Assembly: GCA_965195285.1 (NCBI GenBank)
Contig: CBDAFS010000027.1
Span: 1 to 28,315, forward strand
Source of the DNA: an uncultured Aminicenantes bacterium
GTDB taxonomy: Bacteria; Acidobacteriota; Aminicenantia; UBA2199
Reading direction: 5' to 3'
DNA length: 28,315 nucleotides
A program made the position numbers and the translations under genes. Of this stretch, positions 2,824 to 27,330 are shown piece by piece. How positions within the stretch are numbered: position 1 is the first letter of the stretch; every line of letters starts with the position of its first letter. The notes beneath the pieces were generated by a model, which did no database searches, had not been told where the DNA came from, and worked only from the letters and a program-made list of their open reading frames with translations.

Positions 2824-3570
2824 CTACTCGTGTTTCCATTCCGGCTTTCTCTTTTCAGTAAAACTGGCAATACCTTCCTTCAAATCATCTATCTGGTATA
2901 AATCCTTGAGGAAGAGGTCATTGACAATTGATTCGAATGCCTCTTCAACTGAGATTTTTTCGCCTAATTTAAATGCTTTTTTGGCCAGTCGGAGTACCGG
3001 AACACTGGTTTTATTCAACTGGTTGATCATCTGTTCCCATTCAGCCTGGGGGGAAATTTTTTGAACCAGTCCCATCTGCAAGGCATGCTCGGCATGGATG
3101 GATTCCCCGGTATAAATCAGGTATGAGGCGTTTTGACGGCCCACGATTCCCGCCAGAACCGAACAGGCAAAGGGGGGGAAGAATGCCAGCTTTATCTCGG
3201 GCACACCGAATTTGGCCGATGGATCGGCAATTAAAAAATCACAATACATGGTGAGTTCAAAACCGCCCCCGAAACAAAAACCGTGAATGAGGCCAACGGT
3301 TGGGACCGGCATCCGGTACAGGGCCCTACAGGCTTCGGTAAAGGCCAGTATCATCTCTCTGGATCGTTCCTCCCGGTGGTCCTCGACCGAGGCGCCGGCG
3401 GAAAAACATTTTCCTTCTCCGGAAATAACCACTCCGGCCAGTGACTGATCCAGGGCGGCTGCTTTCAGTTGTTCAGCCAGTTCATTGCAGGTTTTGATGT
3501 CAATCACATTTACCGGTGGAACATTGATTTTTAGTTGAAGTACCCGATCTTTTATCTCAGCCGATATCAT
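2824..3570 (-). CDS. dch: Cyclohexa-1,5-diene-1-carbonyl-CoA hydratase (Dch/BamR), crotonase family
   Basis: Crotonase motifs FSAGASVEDH, CFGGGFEL and FGVPEIKLAFFPP, typical of Dch; clustered with bamB. Confidence 0.8.
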   Translation of the reverse strand: MISAEIKDRVLQLKINVPPVNVIDIKTCNELAEQLKAAALDQSLAGVVISGEGKCFSAGASVEDHREERSREMILAFTEACRALYRMPVPTVGLIHGFCFGGGFELTMYCDFLIADPSAKFGVPEIKLAFFPPFACSVLAGIVGRQNASYLIYTGESIHAEHALQMGLVQKISPQAEWEQMINQLNKTSVPVLRLAKKAFKLGEKISVEEAFESIVNDLFLKDLYQIDDLKEGIASFTEKRKPEWKHE

Positions 3571-3588
3571 TTCATTCTCCTGAAAAAA

Positions 3589-3649
3589 ATTATTACGAAA
3601 AAAGAAATAATTGTCAACCGGTTAATTAAATTTTGTTTCTAACAAATTT
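3589..3649 (-). promoter_or_regulatory. Putative sigma70 promoter of dch with upstream palindromic operator
   Basis: Minus strand TTGACA (3617-3612), 17 nt, AATAAT (3594-3589), then an AGGAG RBS. Palindrome TTTGTT-N3-AACAAA at 3632-3646. Confidence 0.6.
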
Positions 3650-3665
3650 GTAATAAATAGAAAAA

Positions 3666-3692
3666 ATAGAGACATCCATGGTTTTTCTCTAT
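3666..3692. repeat. Small palindrome, degenerate REP-like
   Basis: ATAGAGA-catccatggtttt-TCTCTAT: 7-bp arms with CCATGG in the loop. Confidence 0.3.
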
Positions 3693-3869
3693 GATGAAAA
3701 TAAGATTAGAGGGAGGGGGCCAGATTTAGAATTGACAAAAATTTGTTTATCATTTTTTCATAATTTTAGGGGTAATGTACTGTTACCTGGTTTTGATTTG
3801 AAGGTTAAGGTCGGGAGAAAAAACAAGAAGACCAGTTAACCAGCCACCAAATCCCATTGGTTTCCAATC

Positions 3870-3896
3870 AATTTCTACCTTTCCACGCACCGAGTA
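3870..3896. repeat. Site A1, 27-bp direct-repeat boundary site
   Basis: AATTTCTACCTTTCCACGCACCGAGTA; 24/27 identical to 8987-9013; ends 7 nt from the stop of the TPR lipoprotein gene. Confidence 0.8.
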
Positions 3897-3903
3897 CTAT
3901 TTT

Positions 3904-4428
3904 TCACAGTGCAGAGATAAGCTTTCTCATTTTTTCCACCGCTTTATCCCGATTATTGTTCTGGTAAACATTCATGGCTTCTCCATATTCATCTGTCGCT
4001 TCTTGATTTCGCCCCAACTTTTTATACAGATGGCCAAGATTTTCATGGGCTGCTCCTGTCAACATCTTGTTCCGCCCAAGATATTTCGTATATATATTAA
4101 TCTTTTTTTTGAGGATTGGCTCAAGTTCAGCGTGTTTGTTCTGGGTACGGAAAATAGTCTCAATCTCACCAAATAATTCTCGCATGTCCTTGGTGTGCAC
4201 AGGCTCCCGGCCTAAAGCTTTTTCCAACTTATCCAAAGCTAAAAGATATATTTCTTCCGCCCTAATAAATCGTTCTTGCGCAGGGATACTGGTATCAGCA
4301 CGAATCTTCTTCCCTCGCTCCAGAACTTCCGTCCAGGATAGGTTGGCATACTTCCCACAGCCTGCGATAAAGAGTATTATTAAAGGAATAAGAATACATC
4401 CGAACTTAGATGAATAAGAAACCCTCAT
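3904..4428 (-). CDS. TPR-containing putative lipoprotein
   Basis: Signal peptide with lipobox FIAG-C; TPR-like helices (AHENLGHLYKKLGRNQEATDEYGEAM); GGAGGTG RBS. Confidence 0.75.
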   Translation of the reverse strand: MRVSYSSKFGCILIPLIILFIAGCGKYANLSWTEVLERGKKIRADTSIPAQERFIRAEEIYLLALDKLEKALGREPVHTKDMRELFGEIETIFRTQNKHAELEPILKKKINIYTKYLGRNKMLTGAAHENLGHLYKKLGRNQEATDEYGEAMNVYQNNNRDKAVEKMRKLISAL

Positions 4429-4590
4429 TTGTCACCTCCTGATACTAAAGCCCTTTTTGCTCCCATTGGCTGATAGGAAAATTGTTTTTTAACCACAGGA
4501 ATATTTTATTGAAAGTATTGAAATAAATCAATAGATTAAAGATAAAAACAATTATCAATGGTATGGAGTAAAACTTTTCACCCAGCACTC

Positions 4591-4625
4591 TATTTCAACA
4601 TTTGCACTTTTGCACGCACCAATCA
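4591..4625. repeat. Site A2, diverged copy of the A boundary site
   Basis: TATTTCAA CATTTGCA CTTTTGCA CGCACC AATCA: same 8-mer units plus CGCACC core and same orientation as A1/A3; 18/27 identical to A3. Confidence 0.6.
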
Positions 4626-4701
4626 TTTTTTTTTCGCGTAGTATAATATTATATTTAAATACAAATTAATATATTATTCGAAATTTTTTTCAAAATTTCA
4701 A

Positions 4702-4730
4702 TTGATTTTTACAAAAAATATTTTTATAAT
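4702..4730 (+). promoter_or_regulatory. Putative sigma70 promoter of the MBL / E2-E1-JAB operon
   Basis: TTGATT (4702-4707), 17 nt, TATAAT (4725-4730). Confidence 0.55.
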
Positions 4731-4853
4731 ACATATAATATAGTGTGAAGTAGAGTAATAGTAAAATAACATAAGGGGGAATATTGTATTAGTATTATAG
4801 AGATAAAGCATAATTGCAAATACTTTAATTAATCCAGTAGAATAAAGATTATT

Positions 4854-5573
4854 ATGAATAAAATTAAATTTTGGGATGAATACGAAATAAAGGCCAGGTA
4901 TTTACCAACTTTTTTATCAGTTGTACCACTGGTTCATTTTTTAACATTGTTCTTAGGTGAAGTATTCTGGAAAGAACTAATTGGTAACATTGGTTGGATG
5001 CTCGTTGTTACTAATTTAGGCCTTTCATTATTAGTTATGCTTACACTTGTCCAAATTCAATGTGGATTTTCAAAGCATTGGGTGGAGGAATCAGTTTTTG
5101 GAAAAGGTGGCGAACGATTTCCCACCACAGATATGCTTCTCTACAATGGGGGATTGATTTCTTTTGAGAGGAAAGAACAAATACATAGTGAAATTACCAA
5201 GCAGTTCAGCTCTACATTATCATCAAGAGCTGAAGAAAAGAATAATCCTGATAATGCAAGATTACAGGCTCGTGAAGCTGTTGGGCATGTGAGAGGTACT
5301 GTTGGTAAGGGTGCCATGATACTTCAATACAATATTCGCTATGGTTTCTTTCGAAATCTCATTGGTGGTGTAATTTGGAGTACAGTTGGTTCTATTGGTT
5401 GTTCTATCATTTATGGAATAAACAATAACTGGAAGACTATGAGTTTCTTCATTGTCTTTTTCGTAATTCACTTAACTATGTTTCTTTTTAAAAAAGCGAT
5501 CCTCGAAAAGTTTGCATTTAGTTATGCAGATGCCCTCTTTAATGAATTCTTAAATCAAAATAAAGGAGGTTAA
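4854..5573 (+). CDS. Multi-pass membrane protein, first gene of a 6A-MBL-type defence operon (putative effector)
   Basis: About 4 hydrophobic segments (two N-terminal, two C-terminal) flanking a soluble loop; 2-nt gap to the MBL gene. Confidence 0.7.
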   Translation: MNKIKFWDEYEIKARYLPTFLSVVPLVHFLTLFLGEVFWKELIGNIGWMLVVTNLGLSLLVMLTLVQIQCGFSKHWVEESVFGKGGERFPTTDMLLYNGGLISFERKEQIHSEITKQFSSTLSSRAEEKNNPDNARLQAREAVGHVRGTVGKGAMILQYNIRYGFFRNLIGGVIWSTVGSIGCSIIYGINNNWKTMSFFIVFFVIHLTMFLFKKAILEKFAFSYADALFNEFLNQNKGG

Positions 5574-5575
5574 CA

Positions 5576-6739
5576 ATGTCTAATTCAATAATTTCATTTT
5601 TTCCCGTAGGTGAGAAGAACGGTGGTATGATTCTTATTAAACTAAATGATTCTTACATGACAACTATTTTGATTGATTGCTCTATTGGTGACGAATCAAT
5701 TGCTGATCACTGTGATGTCAATCAAGAACTTAGAGACCGGTTGCCAACAGATTCGAATGGATGTCCTTATATAGATGCTTTTATATTAACTCATAGACAT
5801 GAGGATCACATTAAAGGATTCCAAAAACATTTTCACCTGGGGCCACTTGAAAACTATAAAGATGATGATGATGAATTAAAAATTATAATCAAAGAGCTAT
5901 GGAGCAACTATAATTTTTGGAAGCCTTCCTCAAGCAACTATATACTATGTGATGATGCCAAAGCGTTCAATAAAGAAATGAAACGCCGTATAAAGCTTTT
6001 TGAGGATAACAAATCTATCCAATCTGAAGGTGATAGGGCTATTATAATAGGTAAAGATCCTGATGGCAGAACAGATAACCTTGAAGAAATCAGTTATGAT
6101 ATTGGATTTCTTTTTACAAAAATAAACAACTGTAATATTTCATCTAAGATTAATGGTTTTATTCTTAGTCCAATAGAAAAACAAGAAGATGAAGAGGATG
6201 ATTGCTTTACTGATGAAAACCGTCAAAGCATAGCACTTCAATTAACTGTAAAACAAGGTGGGTATGAAAATAAACTGCTGATGGCAGCCGATGCAGAATG
6301 TCTTGTGTGGGAAACTCTTTGGGGGAAATATAAAAATGATGTTAGTAAATTAGAATATGATATTCTTTCTGCTCCTCATCACTGTTCTTGGCATTCATTG
6401 TCTTATGATAGTCAGTCAAATGATGATGATCCACAAGTTTGTGAAGATGCAAAAATGGCTTTAAGTCAGAATAAAGAAGGTGCTTTTATTGTTTCACAGA
6501 GCAAAATTATAAAAAATGCTGATCAAGATCCACCAAGTGAGGCAGCCAAAGATGAGTATTTAGATATTGTTGGAGAAGGTCAGTTTATTTGTACAAATGA
6601 GCACCCTAATGACAACAAACCAGAACCACTTGAATTCAATCTGACGGGAGATGGGCCTCAAAAAAAAGGTGTACCGGAAAAATCAAAGCTTTCTGCTGCT
6701 GCTTTATCATCAACCAAAGAATCATATCCTCATGGTTGA
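5576..6739 (+). CDS. Metallo-beta-lactamase-fold (ComEC/Rec2-like) hydrolase with C-terminal Gly tail; 6A-MBL system
   Basis: THRHEDH (HxHxDH), ADAE and APHHCS metal-binding motifs; low-complexity tail ending ...KESYPHG; AAGGAGGT RBS. Confidence 0.88.
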   Translation: MSNSIISFFPVGEKNGGMILIKLNDSYMTTILIDCSIGDESIADHCDVNQELRDRLPTDSNGCPYIDAFILTHRHEDHIKGFQKHFHLGPLENYKDDDDELKIIIKELWSNYNFWKPSSSNYILCDDAKAFNKEMKRRIKLFEDNKSIQSEGDRAIIIGKDPDGRTDNLEEISYDIGFLFTKINNCNISSKINGFILSPIEKQEDEEDDCFTDENRQSIALQLTVKQGGYENKLLMAADAECLVWETLWGKYKNDVSKLEYDILSAPHHCSWHSLSYDSQSNDDDPQVCEDAKMALSQNKEGAFIVSQSKIIKNADQDPPSEAAKDEYLDIVGEGQFICTNEHPNDNKPEPLEFNLTGDGPQKKGVPEKSKLSAAALSSTKESYPHG

Positions 6740-8813
6740 ATTTTGGTTAGAAAAAGCTCGAAAATATATACGAGACCATAATGCTTTTGAGGGCGTCTCA
6801 GAATTCAGTTTTTCTGATACATCCAAAAATGCAACTATTTCAGCAATCGTTTCGATTGGCCTGCCCAGCAAATTTATCAAAGTAGGAATTACTGATATAG
6901 GGGTTAATAGTAATGAAGAAGTTAGATTTATTTTTACCGATCAGTTTCCATTAAAAGCTCCAAGAATCCTTCTAAGAAATGATTTTCCAAGATGTTTTCC
7001 TCATATCAATCCATCAAAGTCCGATGTAATTCCATGTATTTACGAAGGAGACCTCTCAGAACTTTTGCAACAATCTGAATGGATGAATGGTATTTTGAAT
7101 CAATTGGTTGATTGGCTTGAGAAAGCAGCTTCAAATGATTTGCTGAATTATGATCAAGGATGGGAGCCGATGAGAAACGATCATTACTCTGGATTTATAC
7201 TTTATGATCTCAACGAAGTAGTTTCTGCTTATACCAGTAAAAATAGTTTATATTTGACTAAGGAGATTTCTTATGAAGAGTGTAAGAATATTATTGTTAC
7301 AGGTACTCTTTGTGATTATAAAAAAAAGAAGACAGCTCGTGCAGTATACTATATGAGTCCCTACTCTATAAAAACTTATGTTCCAAATTCAATAACAAAT
7401 TTGTCTGATCTTTATTTCTATGCAAAAACTATAGGAATCAGTGACCTTGAAGAAGCTATAGAGAAAATTGATTTAAGTCATTTAAATGAAGATAAATTAT
7501 TTGTGGTACTGTCTGTTAAAAGACCGGTCAAACTTATCGGTTCTGATTGTGATATTGAGTTCCTAAATTTTGTAATTCATAAATCTAAACCAAGCAATGG
7601 GAAAAAACGAGTTCTTCCTGATTGCAAAGTTGGAATGCTGTTGCATATAGCAGAGAGAACACCCAATTTATTAAAACATCTCTCAGGGACGCAGACAAGG
7701 ATCAATGAATCAAAAAGTATTGCATTGGTAGGTTGTGGCAGCCTTGGTTCAAAAATCGGAATGCATTTGGTTCGCAATGGGAATGGTCCATTTCTATGTA
7801 TTGATAATGATATTTTTATGCCTCACAACAATGCACGTCATGCATTAACCTTCACTTGGGCAAAAAACAAGGCAGAACTTTTATCAATGTCTATGTTTAA
7901 CACTAGTAAGGTTTTAGCCGAAGCAGTTCCCGAGTCTGCATTTAATGCAGATTATAGTAAATCTAGATTAATAATTGATACAACAGCTTCTCTTTCAGTT
8001 AAAAACTTTTTAATGAGAAATATTGATTTACCGCCTATTATTTCTGGTGGGTTATATGGAAAGGGACGATATGGTATTTTACTTATTGAAAACAAATCAA
8101 AGACTAATCGATTAACAAACCTCTGGGCTCATTTATATTATCAATCCTTAAAGGATAGCTCCATACGAGAAGTATTGTTTTTATCACAGATAAATCGCGC
8201 ACAAATTGGACAAGCCTGTAGTTCTCAAACACTGATTGTTGATGATGCACGTATCTCTCTCATGGCTGCAATAATGAGTCTTAAAATTCAACAACTCCTT
8301 GAAGATGGTTTCCTTGAAAATGGCGAGATTTTATTTTTAAAATACGATGATAATTACTCTTTAACGAAAGAAATTATATCGGTTCCTAAAAGCATTTTGG
8401 TCCTGTCTGTAAAGAAACGAGATTGGCAAGTTTATCTTTCTGAAACAGTACTTATTCAAATGAAAGAACTCATGACTCAAAAAAGTCCCAATGAAACAGG
8501 CGGTGTTTTGTTGGGAACTGTATTTTTATATGCAAAAACAATTGTGGTTACAGATATTTTACCGGCTCCACCCGATAGTGTCGAAAGTCCATGTCTTTTT
8601 ATGTTGGGAACAGAGGGGTTGGAAAAACAAATTAAAAAAGTAGAGATAAAAACAAATGCGAAAGTTACTTATTTAGGAACATGGCATAGCCATCCACATG
8701 GTGGAAACGCTTCTCAGACGGATAATAATACCTATAAAAAGCTTTTATTTGTAAGAAACTATGAACCGACTATATGCCTTATTGTAACACCGGAAAAGAT
8801 AATGCAAGTGTGA
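6732..8813 (+). CDS. Prokaryotic E2-E1(ThiF)-JAB fusion (Cap2/Cap3-like) of a 6A-MBL-type system
   Basis: E2: FPLKAPRI...PHINP...PCIY. E1: VGCGSLGS, DNDIFMPHNNARH, IIDTTAS, candidate catalytic Cys in GQACSS. JAB: PNETGG and WHSHP...SQTD. The start is placed at ATG 6732 (8-nt overlap with the MBL gene) rather than 6651. Confidence 0.9.
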   Translation: MVEFWLEKARKYIRDHNAFEGVSEFSFSDTSKNATISAIVSIGLPSKFIKVGITDIGVNSNEEVRFIFTDQFPLKAPRILLRNDFPRCFPHINPSKSDVIPCIYEGDLSELLQQSEWMNGILNQLVDWLEKAASNDLLNYDQGWEPMRNDHYSGFILYDLNEVVSAYTSKNSLYLTKEISYEECKNIIVTGTLCDYKKKKTARAVYYMSPYSIKTYVPNSITNLSDLYFYAKTIGISDLEEAIEKIDLSHLNEDKLFVVLSVKRPVKLIGSDCDIEFLNFVIHKSKPSNGKKRVLPDCKVGMLLHIAERTPNLLKHLSGTQTRINESKSIALVGCGSLGSKIGMHLVRNGNGPFLCIDNDIFMPHNNARHALTFTWAKNKAELLSMSMFNTSKVLAEAVPESAFNADYSKSRLIIDTTASLSVKNFLMRNIDLPPIISGGLYGKGRYGILLIENKSKTNRLTNLWAHLYYQSLKDSSIREVLFLSQINRAQIGQACSSQTLIVDDARISLMAAIMSLKIQQLLEDGFLENGEILFLKYDDNYSLTKEIISVPKSILVLSVKKRDWQVYLSETVLIQMKELMTQKSPNETGGVLLGTVFLYAKTIVVTDILPAPPDSVESPCLFMLGTEGLEKQIKKVEIKTNAKVTYLGTWHSHPHGGNASQTDNNTYKKLLFVRNYEPTICLIVTPEKIMQV

Positions 8814-8825
8814 AGATTAAGTGCG

Positions 8826-8914
8826 GGGGACGGTCTTTTGAAATTTTGTTTTTTTTAAATTTTTATTTATAAAAATATATTTATAAAAAATCAAAAAAAC
8901 AAAAGACCGTCCCC
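8826..8914. repeat. Palindromic element B1 (REPIN/MITE-like, 89 bp)
   Basis: Perfect 15-bp terminal IR GGGGACGGTCTTTTG / CAAAAGACCGTCCCC around an AT-rich imperfect palindrome; starts 12 nt after the E2-E1-JAB stop. Confidence 0.85.
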
Positions 8915-8946
8915 AAAGGTAAGGCTGGGAAAAAATTGTTTTTTTA

Positions 8947-9013
8947 CATGCATCCATGCATACGTTCATTCATGCATTCATATATCTATTTCTACGTTTC
9001 TACGCACCGAGTA
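8947..9013. repeat. Site A3 preceded by a degenerate 8-mer tandem array
   Basis: CATGCATC CATGCATA CGTTCATT CATGCATT CATATATC TATTTCTA CGTTTCTA CGCACCGAGTA; the last 27 bp are 24/27 identical to A1. Confidence 0.8.
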
Positions 9014-9023
9014 TTTTTTTGAA

Positions 9024-9103
9024 GAAAAAATTATTACCAAAAAAGGTTTTAAAGTCAACCGCTTAATAAAATTTTGATTTTAACGAATTTACAAAATTAG
9101 AAA
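9024..9103 (-). promoter_or_regulatory. Orphan promoter-like segment homologous to the dch promoter region
   Basis: Minus strand TTGACT (9058-9053), 17 nt, AATAAT (9035-9030); aligns by eye with 3582-3663, including the upstream operator-like segment. Confidence 0.55.
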
Positions 9104-9177
9104 TTTAATTCTAATTATTCCATCTCAATTTGAATAATTTCAAGTTACTTATCTCAAGCATCTCTGAAATAAATAAT

Positions 9178-11826
9178 TCAATTTATTAATTCATCTGATT
9201 TACTTAAACATTTTTTGGATTTTTTTATATTCCCGACTTTTTTATATGCTTCTCCCAGATTTTTCCAGTATTCAGCACAATCATTTTTTAAATTTATTGC
9301 CATTTTAAAATGCTCTATAGCTTTCTTGAATTCACTTTTTTCGTAATAAATAATTCCAATTCTATTCCAAGCGTCATGGTCTTTTTCGTTTATTTTAATA
9401 ACTTTTGTGAAGCATCTTTCTCCTTCATTATATGATTTCATATTGTGATAGACGCTGCCTAATGTAAACCATGCTTCCAAAAAATTTTCTTTTTGTTCAA
9501 TTGCTTTTTCACAATATTTAATTGCCTCAAGATACTTTTTGTTTATGTTATAAATATTTGCAATATTATTTAATATTTCTGGAGATTCTCCGTTTAACCT
9601 AATAACTTTTTGATAGCAATTTAACGCTCTTTTTAGTTCGTTTGTTTGAAAATAAATATCTCCCAAGTATCTCCATGCAGAATAATCTTTATTATTTATT
9701 TTAAGTGCTTTTTTTAATGTTAATATTGACTCCTCTACATATCCATGTCTGCAGAATTCAAGACCATTACGAAGTAAGTCTTTATAATTTTGTGTCAGTT
9801 TTATTGCTTTTATAAAACTTTTTTTTGCTTCAATTTTGTCTCCTTTTTTATCATACATAATACCTCTTCTATACCATGTTTCATTACATTTTGGATCAAT
9901 TTCAATCAACTGATTTATTACATTCACAGCTTTATCAATTTCATTAATAGATGAGAATAGAGAAAATTTATATTTTAATAACTCTGCATTCGATGGATCT
10001 AGTTCTGATGCAATTTCGAATGCTTTCAGAGATGGAATATTGTTTTTCATTCTTAGATTTATTATGCCGATTCTCAACCAAGACATGAAATCTTTTGGAT
10101 CTTGTTTTGTGATTTGGGTAAATATTTTTTGTGATTCCTTATACTTTCTTAATTGGAATAAAGTTTCAGCTTTCAGCTTAGCAGTATAGATATTATCTTT
10201 TTTTGATATATCGGCTTTTAAAAGGAAACTTAATGCTTCTTTATATTGATCTAGTTCGAAATAAGCTTTTCCTATCCATAAATAAATTTCATGGTCATCA
10301 TTAACAAGTTCTAGTGCTTGTTTCAAAATATCAATTGCTTTATTGTATTGATTCAATTTAAGTTTAACTCTACCATTTATTTTTAAAATTTTAAAAGATT
10401 TTGGTTCAATCAACAGCGATTTATCAAAAGCGAATGAAGCTTCTGAATAATTTTTCATTTTTTCAAGTAATGAACCTTTATTGAACCATGCTTCATACCG
10501 ATTAGAGTCAATTTTTATTGCCGTTTCGTATGCTTCAAGAGCTGCATCATTTTTTTTAATATCTTCTAATACTGTGCCTTTGTTTACCCAAGCATCATAA
10601 TAATCATTTTTTATTAAGATAGCTTTATTATATGCATTCAACTCTTTTTCAATGAGTCCTTGTTTTCCAAGAGCAAATCCTTTTTCAAGCCAAGCTTCAT
10701 GATTAGAAGGATCAAATTTGATTATTTGATTAAAAATTTCTATTGCATCTTTTATATTTCCAAGATTTCCTAAAACTTTACCCTTATTTAATAATAATTC
10801 AATGTCATCTTTTTTTAATGATAGAGTTTTGTTTAGGGTAATTAATGATTTTTTGTATTTTCCGATATAAGCCAGAAATAAACTAAATTCTTTTAAAATC
10901 TCAAAATCATAGGGAAAGATTTTTAGTACTTCAGTGTAAGATTGCTCAATTTCATTATTATTTTTTTGGAGTCGTAATAAATTGATTTTATTTTTCCAAG
11001 CAATCTTGTTGTTTGGATTCAATTCTAGTGCTCTGTTAAATGCATATATTGAATCTGAAACATCTTCTTTTTGAATTAATAGGAATCCTTTTATATTCAA
11101 TATCTCTGAATCATTTGGGTAAAAATCTTCTAAATCACTAACAATTTTCATTGCTTCTTCATTATTATTTAATACAGATAAAGTGAGTGATTTTAATATA
11201 AGAGCATCTTTATGATTTTTGTTTATATATAGTATTGAATTTAAAATTGATAAAATAGATTCATTATCTTTTTTTCCGAGTGCAAGAAAAGCTTTTCCCA
11301 TTAAGGCTTTAATTAGATTGTCTTCTTCTGTGAAAGTATCTTCACTTTGAATTTTAGATAATGATTTTCCGCCCATTCTAGTTGAAAGTAGATCTATGTT
11401 TTCATTAAATTTTTTAAATAAATCGTACTGTTGCCACATTGACAGTCTATTGTCTCCCCTATCACAATCTTCTAATCGTACAGGGATAATAATAAATTCA
11501 TTTTCAGGTTGATTATTTGCGATCTCAACAGATAAAGTCAATTCTTCATCAAGCATGGTTGATGTTTCCAAATTACTGATTTTATTTAGTGAGTTATTGC
11601 TTATACAAAAAATGAAAAACTTAGTTCTATAAATTGCTTTTTTTATTTGAGGTTTCCATCTACCAGGTCGCATAGATTTCTTGGAGAACCAAACATTCAA
11701 GCGTCTTTTTGTCAGCTCAGTGAATATTTTTTCTACAAATTTTTCATCTTCATCTGCATAACTCAGAAACACTAAATCTCGATCTGGAATTGAGTGCCTT
11801 CCCATTTTTGCTTTCAATTTTACCAT
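9178..11826 (-). CDS. TIR domain + long TPR array protein (putative immune sensor/effector)
   Basis: N-terminal TIR_2 pattern VFLSYADED...LNVWF...IKKAI..KFFIFCIS...EEL...IIPVRLEDC, followed by many 34-aa TPRs (AWxNKG..L....A...Y..A); very AT-rich. Confidence 0.88.
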   Translation of the reverse strand: MVKLKAKMGRHSIPDRDLVFLSYADEDEKFVEKIFTELTKRRLNVWFSKKSMRPGRWKPQIKKAIYRTKFFIFCISNNSLNKISNLETSTMLDEELTLSVEIANNQPENEFIIIPVRLEDCDRGDNRLSMWQQYDLFKKFNENIDLLSTRMGGKSLSKIQSEDTFTEEDNLIKALMGKAFLALGKKDNESILSILNSILYINKNHKDALILKSLTLSVLNNNEEAMKIVSDLEDFYPNDSEILNIKGFLLIQKEDVSDSIYAFNRALELNPNNKIAWKNKINLLRLQKNNNEIEQSYTEVLKIFPYDFEILKEFSLFLAYIGKYKKSLITLNKTLSLKKDDIELLLNKGKVLGNLGNIKDAIEIFNQIIKFDPSNHEAWLEKGFALGKQGLIEKELNAYNKAILIKNDYYDAWVNKGTVLEDIKKNDAALEAYETAIKIDSNRYEAWFNKGSLLEKMKNYSEASFAFDKSLLIEPKSFKILKINGRVKLKLNQYNKAIDILKQALELVNDDHEIYLWIGKAYFELDQYKEALSFLLKADISKKDNIYTAKLKAETLFQLRKYKESQKIFTQITKQDPKDFMSWLRIGIINLRMKNNIPSLKAFEIASELDPSNAELLKYKFSLFSSINEIDKAVNVINQLIEIDPKCNETWYRRGIMYDKKGDKIEAKKSFIKAIKLTQNYKDLLRNGLEFCRHGYVEESILTLKKALKINNKDYSAWRYLGDIYFQTNELKRALNCYQKVIRLNGESPEILNNIANIYNINKKYLEAIKYCEKAIEQKENFLEAWFTLGSVYHNMKSYNEGERCFTKVIKINEKDHDAWNRIGIIYYEKSEFKKAIEHFKMAINLKNDCAEYWKNLGEAYKKVGNIKKSKKCLSKSDELIN

Positions 11827-12163
11827 GTTGAGTCGCCAACTTCAATTAGACGGGAATAGGGATATTTGAATTGAAACTCTGAAAAAGAAATTTGAATAAA
11901 AATATCGATACAATATAATCATTTCTCGATTCAAGTAATAATAATATGTGTATTGCTATAGATTGGATTAATAATGCATCATAGTATAAACTAATTTAAA
12001 TTAACCAGAACGACATCGTTAACAATAAATGTTTTTTGATATCAGAATGAGAGAAAATAATTGATCTTTGTCATACAAAAAATGTAATATTCATTTTGTT
12101 TGAAAATGTATTTGCTATATGTTATTTTTAAAATTAAATAATATTAATTAAATAAGGGGAAAT

Positions 12164-12712
12164 ATGGAAAATAAAAATGATTCAATAATTTTTTGTGGTA
12201 ATTGTGGTCAAAAAGTATCATTAAAATCAAATTTTTGCTGGAAATGTGGCTCTAAAATAAATAGGGTAGATGAACAAAAAGAAATTGATAAGAAATTAGA
12301 TAATAATATTTCGAAAAATTTGGGAACAATAAAAATTTCAGAAGAAAAGGACACAAAACCGGAATTAAAAATCTATAATAAGAAAAAGAGTGATAATATT
12401 ATTTTTAAAATAGTAATTCTAATAATATTAACAATAATTTTGGGATTAGTTGTTAATTCTCCTGATTTATCAGTAATAACAAATATATTCAAAGGAAAAT
12501 TTATTGGAAAGGTTGTTAATATTACATTTCCTACTGAAAAGAGTGGGTGGTCAGGATTAGTAAAATCATATAAAGAGAATAAATATATAGATATTCAATA
12601 TATCAATAAATTTAATAAAACCCTTGGTAAAGAAAGCAGGCTGATTTTAAAAAATAGAAAATATTCAATAACAATAATAGCTGATAGCGTCAATGAATAC
12701 TTTTACAGATAA
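12164..12712 (+). CDS. Double zinc-ribbon, single-TM membrane protein
   Basis: FCGNCG...FCWKCG, then hydrophobic IVILIILTIILGLVV; AAGGGG RBS. Confidence 0.75.
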   Translation: MENKNDSIIFCGNCGQKVSLKSNFCWKCGSKINRVDEQKEIDKKLDNNISKNLGTIKISEEKDTKPELKIYNKKKSDNIIFKIVILIILTIILGLVVNSPDLSVITNIFKGKFIGKVVNITFPTEKSGWSGLVKSYKENKYIDIQYINKFNKTLGKESRLILKNRKYSITIIADSVNEYFYR

Positions 12713-12724
12713 TTTTATAATATG

Positions 12725-12812
12725 GGGGAGGATCTTTTGAAATTTTGTTTTTTTTAATTATTATTTATAAAAATGTATTTATGAAAAATCAAAAAAACAA
12801 AAAACCGTCCCC
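12725..12812. repeat. Palindromic element B2 (second copy of B1)
   Basis: GGGGAGGATCTTTTG...CAAAAAACCGTCCCC; about 7 differences from B1 over ~96 bp by manual alignment; starts 12 nt after the zinc-ribbon stop; both copies are followed by AAAGGT. Confidence 0.85.
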
Positions 12813-12832
12813 AAAGGTCTGACCTCACAGGC

Positions 12833-14549: not shown

Positions 14550-15692
14550 CTATTTTTCTTCTTTGGGTTTGGGCAGAACCGATTCGATGAGATCGCTATC
14601 AAAGGTCTTGGCCTGGGAGAGCAATTGACGGTATTTGATAAAATCAATGGTTCTCTGTCCGGTTATTTTCTGGGTATTGAAGGCGTTAAAACCGATATCC
14701 GCTTCCATGTTCATGTTGGCACCCAGCCAGTAGATTTGACTGCTCTTCTGCATATCCCAATAAAATTTCTTTTTGACCCGGATGCTTTCAATGGTGTTCA
14801 TCAGGCAGAGGAAGGTGGTGTTGGTCAGGGTCCAGTTCATTTTATCGACAAAGGCATCCATCTGGCTCCAATCGGTCTGGAGGCCCTTCAATTCGTCCTT
14901 GGCGGCCTTAAATGCCTCTCCTTTTTTAAACTCCCCGTAAACAATTTCGCCGTTTTCCACATACCGCTCGGTGACCACCCTGGGATCACGCACCCATTCA
15001 CCCTGGCTGTTCTTTTTGATGGGAATGGCCTTGGTGATCAATCCCATTCGCTCCATCTTGGCCGCACTCCACAACTCATTGGCGGTGGCCTGCCACATGG
15101 CCTGTTCCATGCTCAGGTTCCAGGGCAGGAAATCGGTTGATCCTCCGGTTGGGGTGGAACCGTGACGGGTTCCGGCCTGGCCGAATGAGGCCGTATCAGC
15201 TGCTACGGTAAAATCACAGGCCTGGCCAATTTCCTGACCACCGGCGATTCTCATTCCGTTGCAACGGCAAATAACCGGCTTGCGCGACTTTAAAATACCG
15301 TCGATCATTCCGGAAAAGAGATCCATGTACTGGGTATACTCCAGGGGTCTCCGGGAATAGTACTCGGCATACTCCTTGGTGTTTCCTCCCGTGCAAAATG
15401 CCCGGTCTCCGGCGGCTGTGAATACAATGGTCATCACATCTCTTTCCATGGATGCCTTATGCATTCCGGCGGTCACACCCTTGATCATCTGGGTTGTGTA
15501 AGAGTTAAGCTGGCCCGGATTGTTGAGGGTGATCCAGGCCGAATACAATCCATCAACCGTTTCTCCGGTTTCCGGATTGATCAGTGGTTTCTTCTCGTAA
15601 ACCGTACAGGGGGATTCTGTACCAAAGTGCTCATCACCGTATATCTGATGATCCTTGATTTCGTTGTCACGTGGTAACCAGTCTAATGCCAT
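14550..15692 (-). CDS. oah: 6-oxocyclohex-1-ene-1-carbonyl-CoA hydrolase (ring-opening, BamA/Oah)
   Basis: AWITLNNPGQLNSYTT, AFCTGGNTKEYAEYY and NGMRIAGGQEIG motifs diagnostic of Oah/BamA; 380 aa; AAGGAGG RBS. Confidence 0.93.
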   Translation of the reverse strand: MALDWLPRDNEIKDHQIYGDEHFGTESPCTVYEKKPLINPETGETVDGLYSAWITLNNPGQLNSYTTQMIKGVTAGMHKASMERDVMTIVFTAAGDRAFCTGGNTKEYAEYYSRRPLEYTQYMDLFSGMIDGILKSRKPVICRCNGMRIAGGQEIGQACDFTVAADTASFGQAGTRHGSTPTGGSTDFLPWNLSMEQAMWQATANELWSAAKMERMGLITKAIPIKKNSQGEWVRDPRVVTERYVENGEIVYGEFKKGEAFKAAKDELKGLQTDWSQMDAFVDKMNWTLTNTTFLCLMNTIESIRVKKKFYWDMQKSSQIYWLGANMNMEADIGFNAFNTQKITGQRTIDFIKYRQLLSQAKTFDSDLIESVLPKPKEEK

Positions 15693-15772: not shown

Positions 15773-17200
15773 TCATTTTCTTGAGAATCTATTTTTTTTG
15801 GCGGGTTCCGGTGGTTTATTACCGGTTGCGGTTTTTAAAAAAGCCTCGACTTCGGGTATGCCTCCCTGAAAAATCAAATAACCGTTAAAGGGTTCCCTTT
15901 CGGTTATCTCGCTGCATATGGGAGTGAGCATGATTTCCTTGACCCTGTCCAGGTCATCGGTCTGACCCAGTGCCCATGCCAGCTTGATGTAGGCCACTTC
16001 CGGAAGCATGTTTTCTGTGGGTATCACACCGATTTTTTGCATGTCCCTGCCGGTTTCGTACACAAACATGTGAACAAATCCCCAGAGGGTCTGAACGGTC
16101 ATGTATATGGCCACTCCCGCCTTGCTGGCCCTTTCGATAGCCGGATACAGGGGTTTGTTGACATGACCCAGGCCAGTGCCGGCTATAACGATCCCGCGAT
16201 AACCGTTTTCAACCAGCGAGTCAATCATATCGGGATGCATGTTGGGATAATAATAGAGCAAAGTCACCCGTTCTTCAAAATAAGGATAGATATCAACCCG
16301 GCGGTCCTGACGCCGGCGGTTGTAGTCATGTCTCAGGAGAGTGATGTTATCCCTTTTGACCGTGGCCAGGGGAATATCTCCGATGGTCCGGAAGGTGGAC
16401 CGGTAAGAAGAGTGCATTTTACGAACCCGGGTTCCCCGGTGAAGGAGGGCATAATCATCCGAAGTGGTGCCGAACATACAGACCATGACCTCGGCAATAT
16501 CGGATTGGCTGGCAGTGGTAGTGGCATGGATCAAATTTAGAGCCGCATCCGAGGAGGGCCGGTCTGATGATCGCTGGGATCCAACCATAACAATGGGAAC
16601 CGGTGAATTCTGTATCATGAAGGCCAGTGCCGAAGCGGTATGATGCATGGTATCGGTCCCATGTCCGATAACAATGCCGTCAATACCCTGCCTGATCTCT
16701 TCCCCGATGGCGATGGCCAGGGTTTTGTATTGGTCAGGACCCATATTTTCACTGAACACGGAAAATAATTTTTCAGTAGTCAGATTGCAGATATCAGCCA
16801 GTTCCGGTACGGCACCGTATAGTTCTCCGGGTGAAAATGCCGGAATCACGGCCCCGGTACGGTAATCCAGCCTGGAGGCAATGGTGCCGCCGGTACCAAA
16901 AAGTTTGATGTTTGGCTTATCTTCGGATATGGGAAATTCCTTTTCCGGAATCTTGTAATGGGCCTCTTTGTAGCCCAATTCCTTGATATGGGTAATGGTT
17001 TGGATATCGATACCCACGTTGTATCCATTGCCCAGTTTCAGGACCAGGTGGATATCATCATCATACTCGGATCGGGGCAGAATGATCCCATGGAATCCTC
17101 CACGCGTGGTTTCGATGGAAACCTCGCTCCAGACCCGGACTTTATATTTCTTTAGTATATCCAATCCTCTGCCCTTGTATCCTTTGTAGAGATCGTTCAT
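15773..17200 (-). CDS. gatD: Glu-tRNA(Gln) amidotransferase subunit D
   Basis: GatD N-terminal domain (LKLGNGYNVGI) plus asparaginase-like motifs GTGGTIASRLDYRTGAV, HGTDTM, GSQRSSDRPSSDA and RKMHSS; 4-nt overlap with gatE. Confidence 0.93.
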   Translation of the reverse strand: MNDLYKGYKGRGLDILKKYKVRVWSEVSIETTRGGFHGIILPRSEYDDDIHLVLKLGNGYNVGIDIQTITHIKELGYKEAHYKIPEKEFPISEDKPNIKLFGTGGTIASRLDYRTGAVIPAFSPGELYGAVPELADICNLTTEKLFSVFSENMGPDQYKTLAIAIGEEIRQGIDGIVIGHGTDTMHHTASALAFMIQNSPVPIVMVGSQRSSDRPSSDAALNLIHATTTASQSDIAEVMVCMFGTTSDDYALLHRGTRVRKMHSSYRSTFRTIGDIPLATVKRDNITLLRHDYNRRRQDRRVDIYPYFEERVTLLYYYPNMHPDMIDSLVENGYRGIVIAGTGLGHVNKPLYPAIERASKAGVAIYMTVQTLWGFVHMFVYETGRDMQKIGVIPTENMLPEVAYIKLAWALGQTDDLDRVKEIMLTPICSEITEREPFNGYLIFQGGIPEVEAFLKTATGNKPPEPAKKNRFSRK

Positions 17201-19140
17201 TTTCGACCCCCGTTGATATGTTTTCTGAGTGTATTCAATTCAATATTGCCCAAAGCCACCGGTTTCAGCTGGCCCATCAGCCAGCGTTCCCGGGCGCCCG
17301 GAGCTTTTGATGTTCTAATATTGTTGAATTTGACATTCAAGGCCGGCAATATGGAGAGGATTTCTTTCTCTGATTTGTTGCGATATTTCAGGATTTTCAG
17401 GACCGAATCAAAATCGGATTCGGGATGCTGGTAAGCAATGGGGAGCATACTTTTTATGATGTCTGTTTTAAGCTTTTTTTTCCGGATAAATTTAAAAAGC
17501 TCGTAGACTTTTTGATAATCTATGGAGGCATTCCCAACCTGCTGGCCCTCAATATGTTTCAGGGTATGGCCGATCAGGGTGCCGACCAGGAGTGGGTTTT
17601 CCTGGAAATCAGTGATGATACCGGCCAGCAGGGGGAAGAGGTTTTTGCTCAGAATATAGGTGAAGGTAGTGGCCGGAATTTTCCATTTTATCATCTGGTC
17701 GATATGGGCAGTGACCTCGGAAGGAAGTTGCTTTTCGATATCCCGGATCATCCGGTCATCGATGGGGATAGGAGAGGAATCGGTGTCCGGGTACATGCGG
17801 TCGGGTCCGGGCAATACCCGCTCAAAAATCGTGGTCCCGTTTTTAAGGGCTTTGCGGGTTTCGTTGGGAACTCCCTGCAGGGCCAGCCGACAGCGCTCAT
17901 CGATAGTTTCCAGGGCAGTCGGCATGTCAGTTTCTGGTCCCCACAGGATGATCTGGGCATCGTTTTCACCACTCTTCAGGGTTTTTCTGACCCGGGCCCA
18001 GTCTTTGGCCTCCAGCCGGGATGCCAGTGCCTCCGAATGGGTCATACTAGGCCTATTCAAGCAGGCAATAACGGTTAAGCGGTCATGAATTTCATCGGCA
18101 AATATTTTTCCGGGCTGGGTGAAAAAGCTGAGAATCCCCTTGAACAAGGGCAGGTTCACCCCGATAAACCGGTTGTTTGGCTCGGAATTTAATTTCAGGT
18201 CCGGTAATGCACTGGATTTCAATTTCCATTTATTGATGTCCGGGATTCGTTTTTTCAGAATTTTACGGATTTCCAACAGTGATTTCTGGCGGAAGGCCTC
18301 ATTGTGGGTGAGTTCGGGAATGGAACGCAGATGGGCCACGCCTTTGATTTCAACCCGGGTACCACCGTTAATGCTGACATTGACATCCTGACGGGCTGCA
18401 CCGATACCGGTTCTGACATGATTGGTACTTCGGCACAAAAAACGAATGTACTGCCCGGCTTCGGCGGCTTCATCCGGTGTTTTCATGTCGGGATGGGTTA
18501 CGGTTTCCACCAGGGGCATGCCCAGGCGGTCGGTCATGTATACCCGGTCGTGCCGGATATCCGAGACCTCGCGGCAGGAATCCTCTTCCACACTCAACTG
18601 GATGATACGGATAATTTTTTCTCTGAGCGGGATTTCACCTTCGATTCCGATAATACCGGTGCGTTGAAACCCGGTGGGGATACTTCCGTCCAGATACTGC
18701 TTGCGAGTGATATGCAGCTCACCCACGATACTGGTCTTGAGCAGCAGGGCAATTTCAATGGCAATCTCCAGTGCTTCACGATTCAATTTAAAGGGGGGTG
18801 TGTCATCAATTTCATAGGTGCAGGCGGTTCGATGCTTGATCCGGTAAAAGATGTTCTTTTTGGTTTTGAATTCCATCAAGGCGGTTCCATCGTATTCTCC
18901 CAGTTCACTCAGGGTGGGGCGCATATGCCGAATGATTTCGGCATCATAATCATCGCTCTGTTGATATATTCCGGCCGGACAACGGCAGAAGAGTTTTTTT
19001 TTGGTTTTCAGTTGCTGGTGAATTTCAAGCCCGCAGCGATAGCCCAGAGACTCATAGATTTTCCGGTCCGCTTTTCTACGCTCCACATACCCGACTGTTT
19101 TTCGGGTTTTTTCAAGATTCTGCTTCGGATCAAATGTCAT
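17197..19140 (-). CDS. gatE: Glu-tRNA(Gln) amidotransferase subunit E
   Basis: CGLEIHQQL, RPTLSELGEYD, RKQYLDGSIPTGFQRT, RVEIKGV, GVPNETRKA and PGPDRMYPDTD; 647 aa with the internal insertion typical of GatE rather than GatB. Confidence 0.93.
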   Translation of the reverse strand: MTFDPKQNLEKTRKTVGYVERRKADRKIYESLGYRCGLEIHQQLKTKKKLFCRCPAGIYQQSDDYDAEIIRHMRPTLSELGEYDGTALMEFKTKKNIFYRIKHRTACTYEIDDTPPFKLNREALEIAIEIALLLKTSIVGELHITRKQYLDGSIPTGFQRTGIIGIEGEIPLREKIIRIIQLSVEEDSCREVSDIRHDRVYMTDRLGMPLVETVTHPDMKTPDEAAEAGQYIRFLCRSTNHVRTGIGAARQDVNVSINGGTRVEIKGVAHLRSIPELTHNEAFRQKSLLEIRKILKKRIPDINKWKLKSSALPDLKLNSEPNNRFIGVNLPLFKGILSFFTQPGKIFADEIHDRLTVIACLNRPSMTHSEALASRLEAKDWARVRKTLKSGENDAQIILWGPETDMPTALETIDERCRLALQGVPNETRKALKNGTTIFERVLPGPDRMYPDTDSSPIPIDDRMIRDIEKQLPSEVTAHIDQMIKWKIPATTFTYILSKNLFPLLAGIITDFQENPLLVGTLIGHTLKHIEGQQVGNASIDYQKVYELFKFIRKKKLKTDIIKSMLPIAYQHPESDFDSVLKILKYRNKSEKEILSILPALNVKFNNIRTSKAPGARERWLMGQLKPVALGNIELNTLRKHINGGRK

Positions 19141-24234: not shown

Positions 24235-24246
24235 ATTTAACTCAGA

Positions 24247-24281
24247 AGGGAAGGAGGGTGTGGGAAGAGGGAAGGAGGGTG
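24247..24281 (+). repeat. Purine-rich 7-mer array with a canonical G-quadruplex motif
   Basis: AGGGAAG GAGGGTG TGGGAAG AGGGAAG GAGGGTG; five GGG runs with 3-5-nt loops. Confidence 0.6.
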
Positions 24282-25256
24282 ACGGTGCTTGACAATTTGA
24301 CAATTTCATTTTTCCCTCAGTCTCAATTTTGTCCTCTTATACAACTGTCCGATCGAATGAAGTTTCAAATCACTGAACAAATCCATTTTTATAATTTCAG
24401 TATATTTTAAGCCTCCCCTCTCCCTGAGATTAAAAAGCAACTCACCTCTAAGTCTCTTTCCAAAATGAGTTGTTGTATCAATATTTTCGATATTGATTTT
24501 ATACTTTTTCTCAAATTCCATATATATTTTTTTAACCGGTTCAAAATAGAGATCATCAATCCTTTTCCCTTCCATACTTTCTCTATTATTTCTGCGGTCA
24601 AATTTATTTTTTGCTTCTGAAATATAACCTTTCCCCCCAATTATTTTTCCAACTCTCGTCTCAATAACCGGAAGTGATTCTAAATTAGAACTGTTAACCA
24701 TATTAATTAAATTATTTTCATCCCGAAAAAGATCTTCAACATATGATCTGTCTATAATTTCACAATCATTATACTTATTATAATAGTAAGATGCACTCGA
24801 CCATTCATACTCATGGAAATTACTTAATATCCCTGCGCGAACAGGATTATTTAAAACATAGGCTATCGATAAAAGAAGATATGTATCATCCTGAATTAAC
24901 ATAGATTTAAATCGTCCCTGGAATACATATCCCTTTCCACCATGTTCTGATCTGTATAAACTTCCGAAATTCCCATTCAATTGTTTAAGAAAATCTGACA
25001 TCCTACCGGAACTGTTTTCAAGGATCAAATGATAGTGGTTATCCATCAGACAATAAGCAAATATTCTTATTTTCAACTCTTGAGAATATAACCCTAATAA
25101 ACTCAGAAATTTTTCTTTATCTTTTCTCTCCTTAAAGATCGGTTTCCCATCATATCCCCGGTTCATAACATGGTGATAGGCTCCCCGGTATGTTACCCTT
25201 GCTCGGCGCATAAATAATCTTTATAACAAAAATGTCAAAATGTCAAGCACCGTCAC
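24279..25256 (-). mobile_element. RAYT/Y1 transposase unit bounded by 24-bp inverted repeats
   Basis: Left GTGACGGTGCTTGACAATTTGACA (24279-24302); right TGTCAAAATGTCAAGCACCGTCAC (25233-25256); 1 mismatch; no target-site duplication seen. Confidence 0.8.
24306..25211 (-). CDS. REP-associated tyrosine transposase (RAYT-like HUH/Y1) with C-terminal helical/HTH extension
   Basis: YHHVMNRG, AYCLMDNHYHL (HUH), FQGRFKS, YVLNNPVRAG (catalytic Tyr) and YEWSS; 301 aa. Confidence 0.9.
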   Translation of the reverse strand: MRRARVTYRGAYHHVMNRGYDGKPIFKERKDKEKFLSLLGLYSQELKIRIFAYCLMDNHYHLILENSSGRMSDFLKQLNGNFGSLYRSEHGGKGYVFQGRFKSMLIQDDTYLLLSIAYVLNNPVRAGILSNFHEYEWSSASYYYNKYNDCEIIDRSYVEDLFRDENNLINMVNSSNLESLPVIETRVGKIIGGKGYISEAKNKFDRRNNRESMEGKRIDDLYFEPVKKIYMEFEKKYKINIENIDTTTHFGKRLRGELLFNLRERGGLKYTEIIKMDLFSDLKLHSIGQLYKRTKLRLREK

Positions 25257-25289
25257 TCTTGATTGTATATTGATTGAGAAAAAATCAAA

Positions 25290-25868
25290 TTATTTATTCT
25301 CTTTTGATTTTTCATCTCTCAATTGTTCTTCCATTAACTCATTTAATTTCTTGTGATCTTTTTCACCAAATCTATCAATTTGAATAGTAATATATTGTTT
25401 GTTATTATTGGGTTTACAAAGATTACGTAATTCTTCTATATTCTCTTCTTGAGAATAATATATAAGAAGAATTGAAGCAATTCTTTTCTTGGATTCATCA
25501 GTATAATTTTTTATAAAGTGATGAACTAACTCAGTTTTATTGTCTGGTCTACCTTTTAAATAATTTACCCAATCAGAAGTGCCTTTAAGAAATTCAATAT
25601 CTCCTTCATAAAATTTCCATCCACATTGTAACAACTGTTTTTCGAGATTATAAAAAGCTTTTTTTGATGGATATTCATCTTCATATTTAAAGTGAATATA
25701 AGCTCTTTTCTTCTCAATCACCCACTTTGGTTTTTGTTCAAACAACTGGATTTTTTTCTCACATGGCCCAATTAATGAAAAAGAAGTTAATTTAACATTA
25801 GATTTTTTTAAATCACATCCAGGTAAAAATATTATAATGAATAATATCAAGCATAAAAAGTTTTTCAT
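25290..25868 (-). CDS. Lipoprotein, putative immunity protein of the orphan Rhs toxin
   Basis: Lipobox FLPG-C; starts 1 nt after the orphan Rhs stop. Confidence 0.65.
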   Translation of the reverse strand: MKNFLCLILFIIIFLPGCDLKKSNVKLTSFSLIGPCEKKIQLFEQKPKWVIEKKRAYIHFKYEDEYPSKKAFYNLEKQLLQCGWKFYEGDIEFLKGTSDWVNYLKGRPDNKTELVHHFIKNYTDESKKRIASILLIYYSQEENIEELRNLCKPNNNKQYITIQIDRFGEKDHKKLNELMEEQLRDEKSKENK

Positions 25869-25869
25869 T

Positions 25870-26463: not shown

Positions 26464-26469
26464 CAGAGA

Positions 26470-26502
26470 CATGTTAGATGTTGCATGTGTCATGTTACAT
26501 GT
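26470..26502. repeat. 7-bp-period ATGT array at the orphan Rhs junction
   Basis: ATGT at 26471, 26478, 26485, 26492 and 26499. Confidence 0.6.
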
Positions 26503-26555
26503 AAATGATAAATTTATGAACAAATCATTTCCATTCCTTAAATCGAGATATTTCT

Positions 26556-27257: not shown

Positions 27258-27330
27258 TTTTATTAGTTTTTCTTTTTATATTATTTATTTAAAAAATTAA
27301 ATAAAAGCTAACAGATAACCAATTTTTAAA

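Follow-up and report, generated by a model that had tools for sequence, protein, structure and literature searches.

The window analysed here is a 28,315-nt stretch of DNA that makes up the entire contig C27 of an uncultured Aminicenantes bacterium (genome G000: 3.28 Mb, 62 contigs, 42% G+C), and the close homologues of its proteins are annotated as Candidatus Aminicenantes or Acidobacteriota. Within its genes for anaerobic benzoyl-CoA breakdown, the G+C content falls to 21-36% from about 4500 to 12800. This region holds a 6A-MBL anti-phage operon and a gene encoding a Toll/interleukin receptor domain with TPRs, accompanied by short repeated sites (A1, A2, A3, B1, and B2), while motifs of the same design form the ends of a tyrosine transposase gene further right, initially named RAYT (for REP-associated tyrosine transposase, where REP is a repetitive extragenic palindrome). 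These A, B, and RAYT-end motifs are most probably terminal inverted repeat (TIR) copies of one diversified TIRYT/TIRtron family, which stand as spacer repeats in the flexible genome, like REP/BIME repeats. The initial annotation had taken the same region for a candidate integron-like cassette array served by a RAYT-family enzyme, and knew of no described system like it.

The A sites, the B sites, and the transposase ends, all of which lie where the initial annotation had placed them (Table 1), have a common design, in which a CGGT(G/C)C core is followed by two tandem 8-bp units. The hexamer [CT]GGTGC was found 1914 times in the genome, and 55 of these matches directly precede two 8-mers that are alike at 6 or more of the 8 positions, compared with 12-20 in six offset controls. 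When at least 7 of 8 positions were required to agree, 23 pairs remained against 2-4 in the controls. The shared design of core and 8-bp units, as first proposed, is thus real.

The transposase encoded in the window matches PF01797 (Y1_Tnp, E 9.1e-8), and its HUH motif (H59-x-H61) and the Y118-x3-N-P motif are invariant in all five aligned proteins, which also share a conserved C-terminal domain. Eight full-length TIRtrons of ~980 bp each are present in the genome, with transposases 45-100% identical, and more distant paralogues exist besides; with 15 matches, G000 has the most among 41 relatives. Each of the eight units possesses its own inverted ends, which share the G-rich core GGGG..CGGT[G/C]C and carry their own 8-bp unit twice in tandem, examples being TTGACATT, TTGTAAAC, TTTACAAT, and CTTACTTT. 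A motif close to GGGGWSAS reads GGGGTGAC at the units of contigs C21 and C15 and GGGGACGG at others, and the window's own copies read GGGTGACG and AGTGACG; the A families of this genome are without the GGGG prefix. The homology between the window TIRtron (family F1) and its copy in the related genome G001 is confined to 24276-25256, end to end, with different surrounding genes, and the contig-15 TIRtron is present in the congener G002 at 91% identity at another location. From one species to another, TIRtron units differ in location instead of being fixed.

The cognate sites of the transposase at 24306 are the F1-type ends of its own unit, and neither A nor B; the suggestion that it captures or shuffles cassettes at the A and B sites is not supported. 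The B sites belong to another unit of the same genome: the right arm of B1 is identical to the end of the contig-9 TIRtron over 31 of 31 positions, and because of this arm identity B1 and B2 are miniature derivatives of that TIRtron. Each is a complete miniature element, and not a one-sided recombination site. Genome-wide, B-type dimers number three only (B1, B2, and one on C57). B1 and B2 are 84% identical ungapped and 92.7% identical by BLAST. B1 folds into a hairpin of -27 kcal/mol (z -7.55), and the fold of B2 (z -1.66) is no better than that of many shuffles; single TIR units give 0 to -2.8 kcal/mol, again no better than shuffles, and the A sites are unstructured as single strands.

Among the A sites, A1 and A3 are 86% alike and A2 is 65% alike (repeat family D2). 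The intact A2-type site was found in 23 metagenome loci, in eight of which a TIRYT gene, whole or fragmentary and ~50% identical to the window transposase, lies no more than ~100 nt away. Complete TIRtrons with A2-type TIRs occur in metagenome loci L041, L049, L058, and L050, of which L041 has both inverted A2-type ends and L050 has lost internal sequence. The A1/A3 family was seen only within this genus, outside this genome as single copies in two congeneric genomes (two loci in the genome-contig scan). The view of the initial annotation that A, B, and the RAYT end represent a single type of site linked to HUH/Y1 enzymes is borne out by the identity of the B arms with the contig-9 ends and by the transposases that A2-type sites flank in metagenomes.

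According to the cited parts of the description by Di Nocera, De Gregorio & Rocco 2013 (PMC3733652), RAYT-like genes lying between long inverted repeats are TIRtrons and their enzymes are TIRYTs; the TIRs share a GGGGWSAS motif, and additional TIR copies stand alone, in dimers, or in groups, the acidobacterium Koribacter included. Quentin et al. 2018 equated TIRtrons/TIRYT with TnpA-Y1 subclass 2.1 in the section referred to here (PMC6006769). The system is therefore not a new one, as far as these sources describe it. The units reported here resemble TIRtrons in the RAYT-like HUH/Y1 gene set between long inverted repeats instead of hairpins, the G-rich outer motif close to GGGGWSAS, the singles, dimers, and groups of extra TIR copies, the several paralogues with different TIRs per genome, and the C-terminal extension after the catalytic tyrosine. 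They differ in their fixed core with two tandem 8-bp units that vary between paralogues, a feature absent from the cited parts of the published description, in the presence of at least eight full-length units and 13 TIR families in one 3.3-Mb genome, and in A families that lack the GGGG prefix. Subclass 2.1 of TnpA-Y1 is characterised, in the cited section, by a C-terminal helix-turn-helix (HTH; Bac_DnaA_C, HTH_23, or HTH_28), whereas the conserved C-terminal domain here has no Pfam HTH match.

Comparison with other repeat systems places the sites close to REP, REPIN, and BIME sequences with their RAYT: the enzyme families are related (NF047646 match), cognate repeats without transposase sit in spacers, are found more often after a gene or between convergent genes, and cluster with different repeats, and dimers form hairpins. 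Unlike REP/REPIN, the single units here are not palindromes, are without the GTAG tag, and go with an enzyme under the cut-off of the RAYT model, and the transposase units stand at different places in different species. B1 and B2 resemble miniature inverted-repeat transposable elements in being 95 bp long, non-coding, and bounded by inverted ends that match a full-length element of the same genome, but no target-site duplication was seen at them, the genome has only three dimers, and most copies are single ends. With IS200/IS605 elements (IS608, ISDra2) the TIRtrons here share the Y1 HUH catalytic domain and a copy orientation that follows the replication strand, whereas IS200/IS605 elements have subterminal hairpins in place of inverted repeats at their ends and often carry tnpB.

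A catalogue of sites with at most 6 mismatches to any of the 13 family strings contains 112 sites, of which 16 flank the eight TIRtrons and 96 are without transposase. The transposase-free copies occur as singles, dimers, and clusters and are nearly all intergenic. Placement was evaluated on the 80 sites that lie away from TIRtrons with at most 4 mismatches, and since the sites lie in clusters, the resulting counts lack independence. Of 79 sites, 49 turn the outer (core) side toward a stop codon and 30 toward a start; the inner side is turned toward a gene start at 38 of 73 sites and toward a stop at 35. Spacers between convergent genes, which make up 15% of the spacer length, contain 21 of the 72 sites that have genes on both sides. 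Such sites were found in 45 of 1365 spacers, and in these the median G+C of the AT-richer neighbour gene is 0.35, compared with 0.40 (p 1e-5). Consecutive sites are less than 2 kb apart in 34 of 59 cases, and neighbours are co-oriented in 20 of 24 pairs. Site orientation matches the sign of the local GC skew for 56 of the 80 sites, and an orientation that follows GC skew is the pattern of single-strand Y1 transposition at replication forks.

In the proposed mechanism, TIR copies would be seeded by their cognate enzymes working on single-stranded DNA, and would then persist between the genes of the flexible genome in the manner of REP/BIME repeats. The core would be read by the catalytic domain and the 8-bp units probably by the conserved C-terminal domain, since the units differ between paralogues and the core does not. 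The low-G+C defence genes, namely the 6A-MBL operon and the Toll/interleukin receptor-TPR gene, probably came by horizontal transfer, and the repeats around them would be extragenic repeats and occasional recombination scars instead of integron-type cassette sites.

The defence operon itself bears on this last point. Its assignment to 6A-MBL rests on matches to NF058524 (364.3 bits, cut-off 220) and NF058523 (504.4 bits, cut-off 320). PADLOC labelled the MBL and E1-E2/JAB parts only and gave no match for the 239-aa, zinc-ribbon, or TPR lipoprotein genes; for the 239-aa protein, no Pfam, NCBIfam, or PADLOC family was matched. The five closest 6A-MBL operons elsewhere are 59-77% identical and come from other phyla. 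MBL stands ahead of E2-E1-JAB in four of these five loci, and the 239-aa gene is whole in three, upstream genes being judged where the contigs extend far enough: it lies upstream of MBL at 60-79% identity in L032 and L033 and at 26% in a third locus, and in a fourth it is represented by a contig-end fragment only. No TIR-type site was found in these five loci, and the operon travels across phyla as a unit without A/B-type sites.

The integron-like array was proposed for short sites that lie between accessory genes, near stop codons, and in a variable region, and this likeness to integron arrays holds. The three distances between stop codon and site were confirmed: 6 nt separate A1 from the TPR gene stop at 3904, which lies beyond it, while B1 and B2 each lie 12 nt after a stop, that of E2-E1-JAB at 8813 and that of the zinc-ribbon gene at 12712, respectively. 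A1 turns its outer side toward the TPR gene stop and its inner side toward the region upstream of dch. However, a Pfam scan of the 21 open reading frames (ORFs) of the window found no integrase family and no IntI, in line with the earlier remark that a tyrosine integrase is missing, and single sites lack an attC-like fold. The genes stand on both strands with promoters of their own, one cargo is a multi-gene operon, the sites belong to several families, and the host repeats do not travel with the cargo. Because the kind of element has been published, integron features are lacking, B1 and B2 are complete elements, the cargo is on the outer side, and several boundaries are free of sites, we do not retain an integron-like system, and support for that reading is weak.

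Several results weigh against the interpretation of the sites as TIRtron-derived spacer repeats. The window transposase scores 62.6 bits against NF047646, the REP-associated tyrosine transposase model, which is below the cut-off of 80, and its C-terminal domain had no Pfam match at E up to 10. No transposase for the A1/A3 family was found in the scan of genome contigs, and the metagenome scan gave 0 loci. The placement statistics depend on crude in-house ORF calls (2817 ORFs), and among spacers of at least 150 nt a neighbour gene with G+C below 0.36 was recorded for 24 of the 40 with sites versus 158 of the 537 others. Two site-rich regions (19-20 kb), which were picked for having sites, are covered to only about 12% and 18% by G003, a genome with 95% DNA identity, versus about 91% and 100%, collinear, for two site-free control regions; the enrichment of sites beside AT-rich genes and in variable regions, which the initial annotation had anticipated, is upheld by these figures. 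At A1, homology of the TPR lipoprotein stretch (3903-4585, 94% identical in G002 among other neighbouring genes) breaks at the stop codon, 6 nt from the outer edge of the site. The A3 unit likewise sets the limit, at its outer edge, of the homology of D3', an orphan duplicate of the dch promoter region. Before one gene on C31 (166959-166986; L028 2594-2680), an F1-type TIR in G000 is replaced by an A1/A3-type TIR in G003, and the sequences of the two genomes beyond it are unrelated. Such outer-edge junctions, together with the AT-rich neighbours and the patchy site-rich regions, fit a more active role in gene exchange.

We therefore weighed whether gene modules enter, leave, or replace one another at the TIR copies, which would act as joints, either by TIRYT strand transfer at the outer edge or as short-repeat anchors for homologous or homology-facilitated recombination, and consider this unlikely. 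The outer-edge junctions at A1 (with G002), at A3/D3', and at the F1/A site on C31 speak for it, as do the AT-rich neighbour genes and the presence of TIR sites in four of the five spacers of 3571-12832, when elsewhere in the window only the two ends of the transposase gene itself were found. The regions rich in sites are patchy, their genes being scattered one by one over separate contigs in G001. Long direct repeats also lie by outer TIR edges, namely 91 nt at the contig-15 unit, ~65 nt at the window TIRtron, and ~80 nt for D3/D3', and partial tandem copies of the outer TIR or of adjoining G-rich sequence (outer-TIR stutter) stand at the outer ends of several TIRtrons.

Other breakpoints are free of sites: the A1 and A3 junctions lie at outer edges, but those at 14555 and in G014 do not involve any site. 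In G014, which belongs to another genus of the same family, oah, had, a dch-like gene, and the AFOR gene are contiguous without the island, and no TIR site was seen at either junction. In G003, homology ends at the oah stop codon (window 14555) with another gene beyond, and this right edge of the variable region is without repeats. A 3.47-kb segment at C31 155126-158598, which encodes a TonB-dependent receptor and a repeat protein, is absent from G003 and has no TIR at either end, its junction showing only a few bases of microhomology. Because repeats interrupt the contigs of relatives and intergenic homology disappears at 75% identity, homology blocks end near spacers anyway; the choice of regions for their sites also lessens the force of the coverage comparison, and in most bacteria mobile repeats collect in flexible regions without causing the flexibility. 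A site does not travel with the 6A-MBL operon. Among 98 local direct repeats, found in a survey that missed D3/D3', eight adjoin a site and 11 are sites themselves; the idea that long local direct repeats go with TIR sites in general was rejected on this count, and the long duplications are a lead and not a rule, since only those eight adjoin sites.

A more specific form of exchange, driven by HUH enzymes and distinct from integrons, would join DNA at the outer TIR edge, duplicate 65-91 nt of target (a gene 3' end or a promoter), and leave stacked co-oriented TIRs as scars; we regard it as distinctly improbable. The contig-15 TIRtron is one lead: it stands between 91-nt direct repeats (98% identical; C15 51260-51350 and 52359-52449, equal to L093 2761-2851 and 3860-3950) that include some of the neighbouring gene's 3' end, and a third, partial copy follows 590 nt further, on the far side of a small-gene insert. 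At this locus the repeat is present once in G003, from which the entire 1.7 kb is missing; a simple empty site was rejected, as G003 lacks more than the unit alone. Another lead is the window TIRtron, where ~65 nt from the 3' end of an AMP-ligase gene plus 17 nt downstream (24186-24250) recur inverted at C20 53715-53775, near a contig end. In G003 and G001 the AMP-ligase gene is followed directly by the C20 gene, so 24251-28315, which has low G+C and starts with the TIRtron, looks like a portion of an island that was inserted there, with C27 and C20 probably being neighbouring contigs. The small-gene insert missing from G003, D3' at A3, and the A1 and F1/A junctions may be counted among these leads as well.

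An exapted regulatory role, in which TTGACA-like units provide the inner-side gene with a -35 box and dimers after stop codons act as RNA hairpins that end or stabilise transcripts, is very improbable. The F1 units read TTGACA, and at the C31 gene TTGACA-N17-GAAAAT is kept in both G000 and G003 although their sites are not alike in the outer part, a hint that a -35 box can be supplied by TIR units; the B1 hairpin is strong and stands 12 nt after a stop codon, and 38 of 73 sites turn their inner side toward a gene start. Yet with 35 sites facing the other way there is no orientation preference toward starts, many families, A included, have no -35-like unit, B2 is decayed, and no T run follows the B hairpin. 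A chance likeness of unrelated AT-rich intergenic motifs, to which only the A1/A3 family with its missing GGGG prefix and transposase lends itself, is almost certainly wrong in view of the excess over offset controls, the A2-type sites that flank TIRYT genes, and the recurrence of the A1/A3 family in three congeneric genomes beside other TIR types.

Seen as TIR copies of one TIRtron family, the sites make this genome a rich TIRtron example rather than the new system that had been proposed. To our knowledge, TIRtrons were named in 2013 and have never been studied at the bench. Eight enzyme paralogues with matching ends, in which the core is kept and the units are changed, offer a ready set for studying how tyrosine transposases recognise and cut DNA. 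The TIR repeats also mark flexible, defence-rich parts of Aminicenantes genomes, which makes them useful for annotation and explains assembly breaks there. If the repeats were joints of gene-module exchange, they would represent a new route of gene capture.

Table 1. Sites, genes, and other features of the window, with places of outer-TIR stutter on other contigs and loci.
Feature	Position	Strand	Remark
A1	3869..3897	-	Single TIR copy, GTAGAAAC family
A2	4598..4625	-	Single degenerate TIR copy, GTGCAAAA family; 4 mismatches to intact form
A3	8986..9014	-	Single TIR copy, GTAGAAAC family; outer edge abuts D3'
B1	8826..8920	.	95-bp TIR dimer, contig-9 TIRtron family; inverted-repeat pair
B2	12724..12818	.	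Decayed copy of B dimer, 95 nt; left-arm core mutated; at sharp G+C rise
Complete TIRtron	24276..25257	-	Tyrosine transposase gene 24306-25211(-), 301 aa
TIRs of window TIRtron	24278-24305 and 25230-25257		28 nt, inverted
Outer-TIR stutter	Window 24240-24280; C50 34254-34300; C12 67720-67780; C49 48750-48795; L086 about 10230-10290; L096
D3, native dch promoter region	3584..3665	.	First copy of ~80-nt direct repeat; upstream of dch in G001 too
D3', orphan second copy of dch promoter region	9025..9105	.	82% over 66 nt
Dispersed repeat, 92 nt	4640..4731	.	Adjoins A2; copies on contigs C60, C35 and in G003
6A-MBL anti-phage operon	4854..8813	+	Three genes; NCBIfam models
239-aa gene, first of 6A-MBL operon	4854-5573	+	No family match
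MBL-fold protein of 6A-MBL operon	5576-6739	+
E2-E1-JAB (cap2_3) protein	6651-8813	+
Toll/interleukin receptor-domain + TPR protein, 882 aa	9178..11826	-	PF13676, E 4.6e-19
Zinc-ribbon membrane protein, 182 aa	12164..12712	+	Family scan
TPR lipoprotein gene	3904..4428	-	Left of low-G+C stretch
VWA-like gene, 532 aa	12833..14431	-	Right of low-G+C stretch
Aldehyde ferredoxin oxidoreductase (AFOR) gene			Flanks low-G+C stretch
Alcohol dehydrogenase gene			Flanks low-G+C stretch
Dienoyl-CoA hydratase-like gene (dch)	2824-3570		Flanks low-G+C stretch
6-oxocyclohexene-carbonyl-CoA hydrolase (oah)	14550-15692		TIGR03200, 473 bits

Two further candidates in the left part of the window were rejected. 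A sharp composition edge at A2 is not present, the G+C content falling from ~100 nt earlier in ordinary spacer DNA. A TIR-bounded composite transposon at 3666-9024 was discarded, as its would-be left end GGGGGCCAG at ~3708 resembles the promoter of a G002 gene and not a TIR. The same area carries a promoter-like stretch, TTGACAAAAATTTGTTTAT (window 3700-3770), with no gene behind it; in G002 (L027 430-480) this stretch precedes an enoyl-CoA hydratase gene, and the copy in the window appears to be a scar of an earlier arrangement. On the G002 contig that carries the TPR lipoprotein stretch, three TIR types stand next to one another, namely the A1/A3 type, the A2 type, and a further one. At the right side of the island, the VWA-like gene has a 75% paralogue on contig 14 and is specific to this genome at this place, because the homology of G003 ends at 14555. 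No known RNA families and no tRNA genes were found in the window.

Other abundant short repeats were also recorded in the genome repeat survey, which used 16-mers, 13-mers being too noisy. One family has 83 segments with TTACG-type 8-bp periodic units, and another has 54 segments of the GGGGTCAGGTCT type and also precedes more distant Y1 paralogues; examples of these other repeat families lie at C41 12605-12673 and C53 37568-37650. Finally, we also identified GatD-/GatE-type genes of the archaeal-type Glu-tRNA(Gln) amidotransferase at 15773-19140 of the window in this bacterial genome, and their proteins are 96-98% identical to those of G003.

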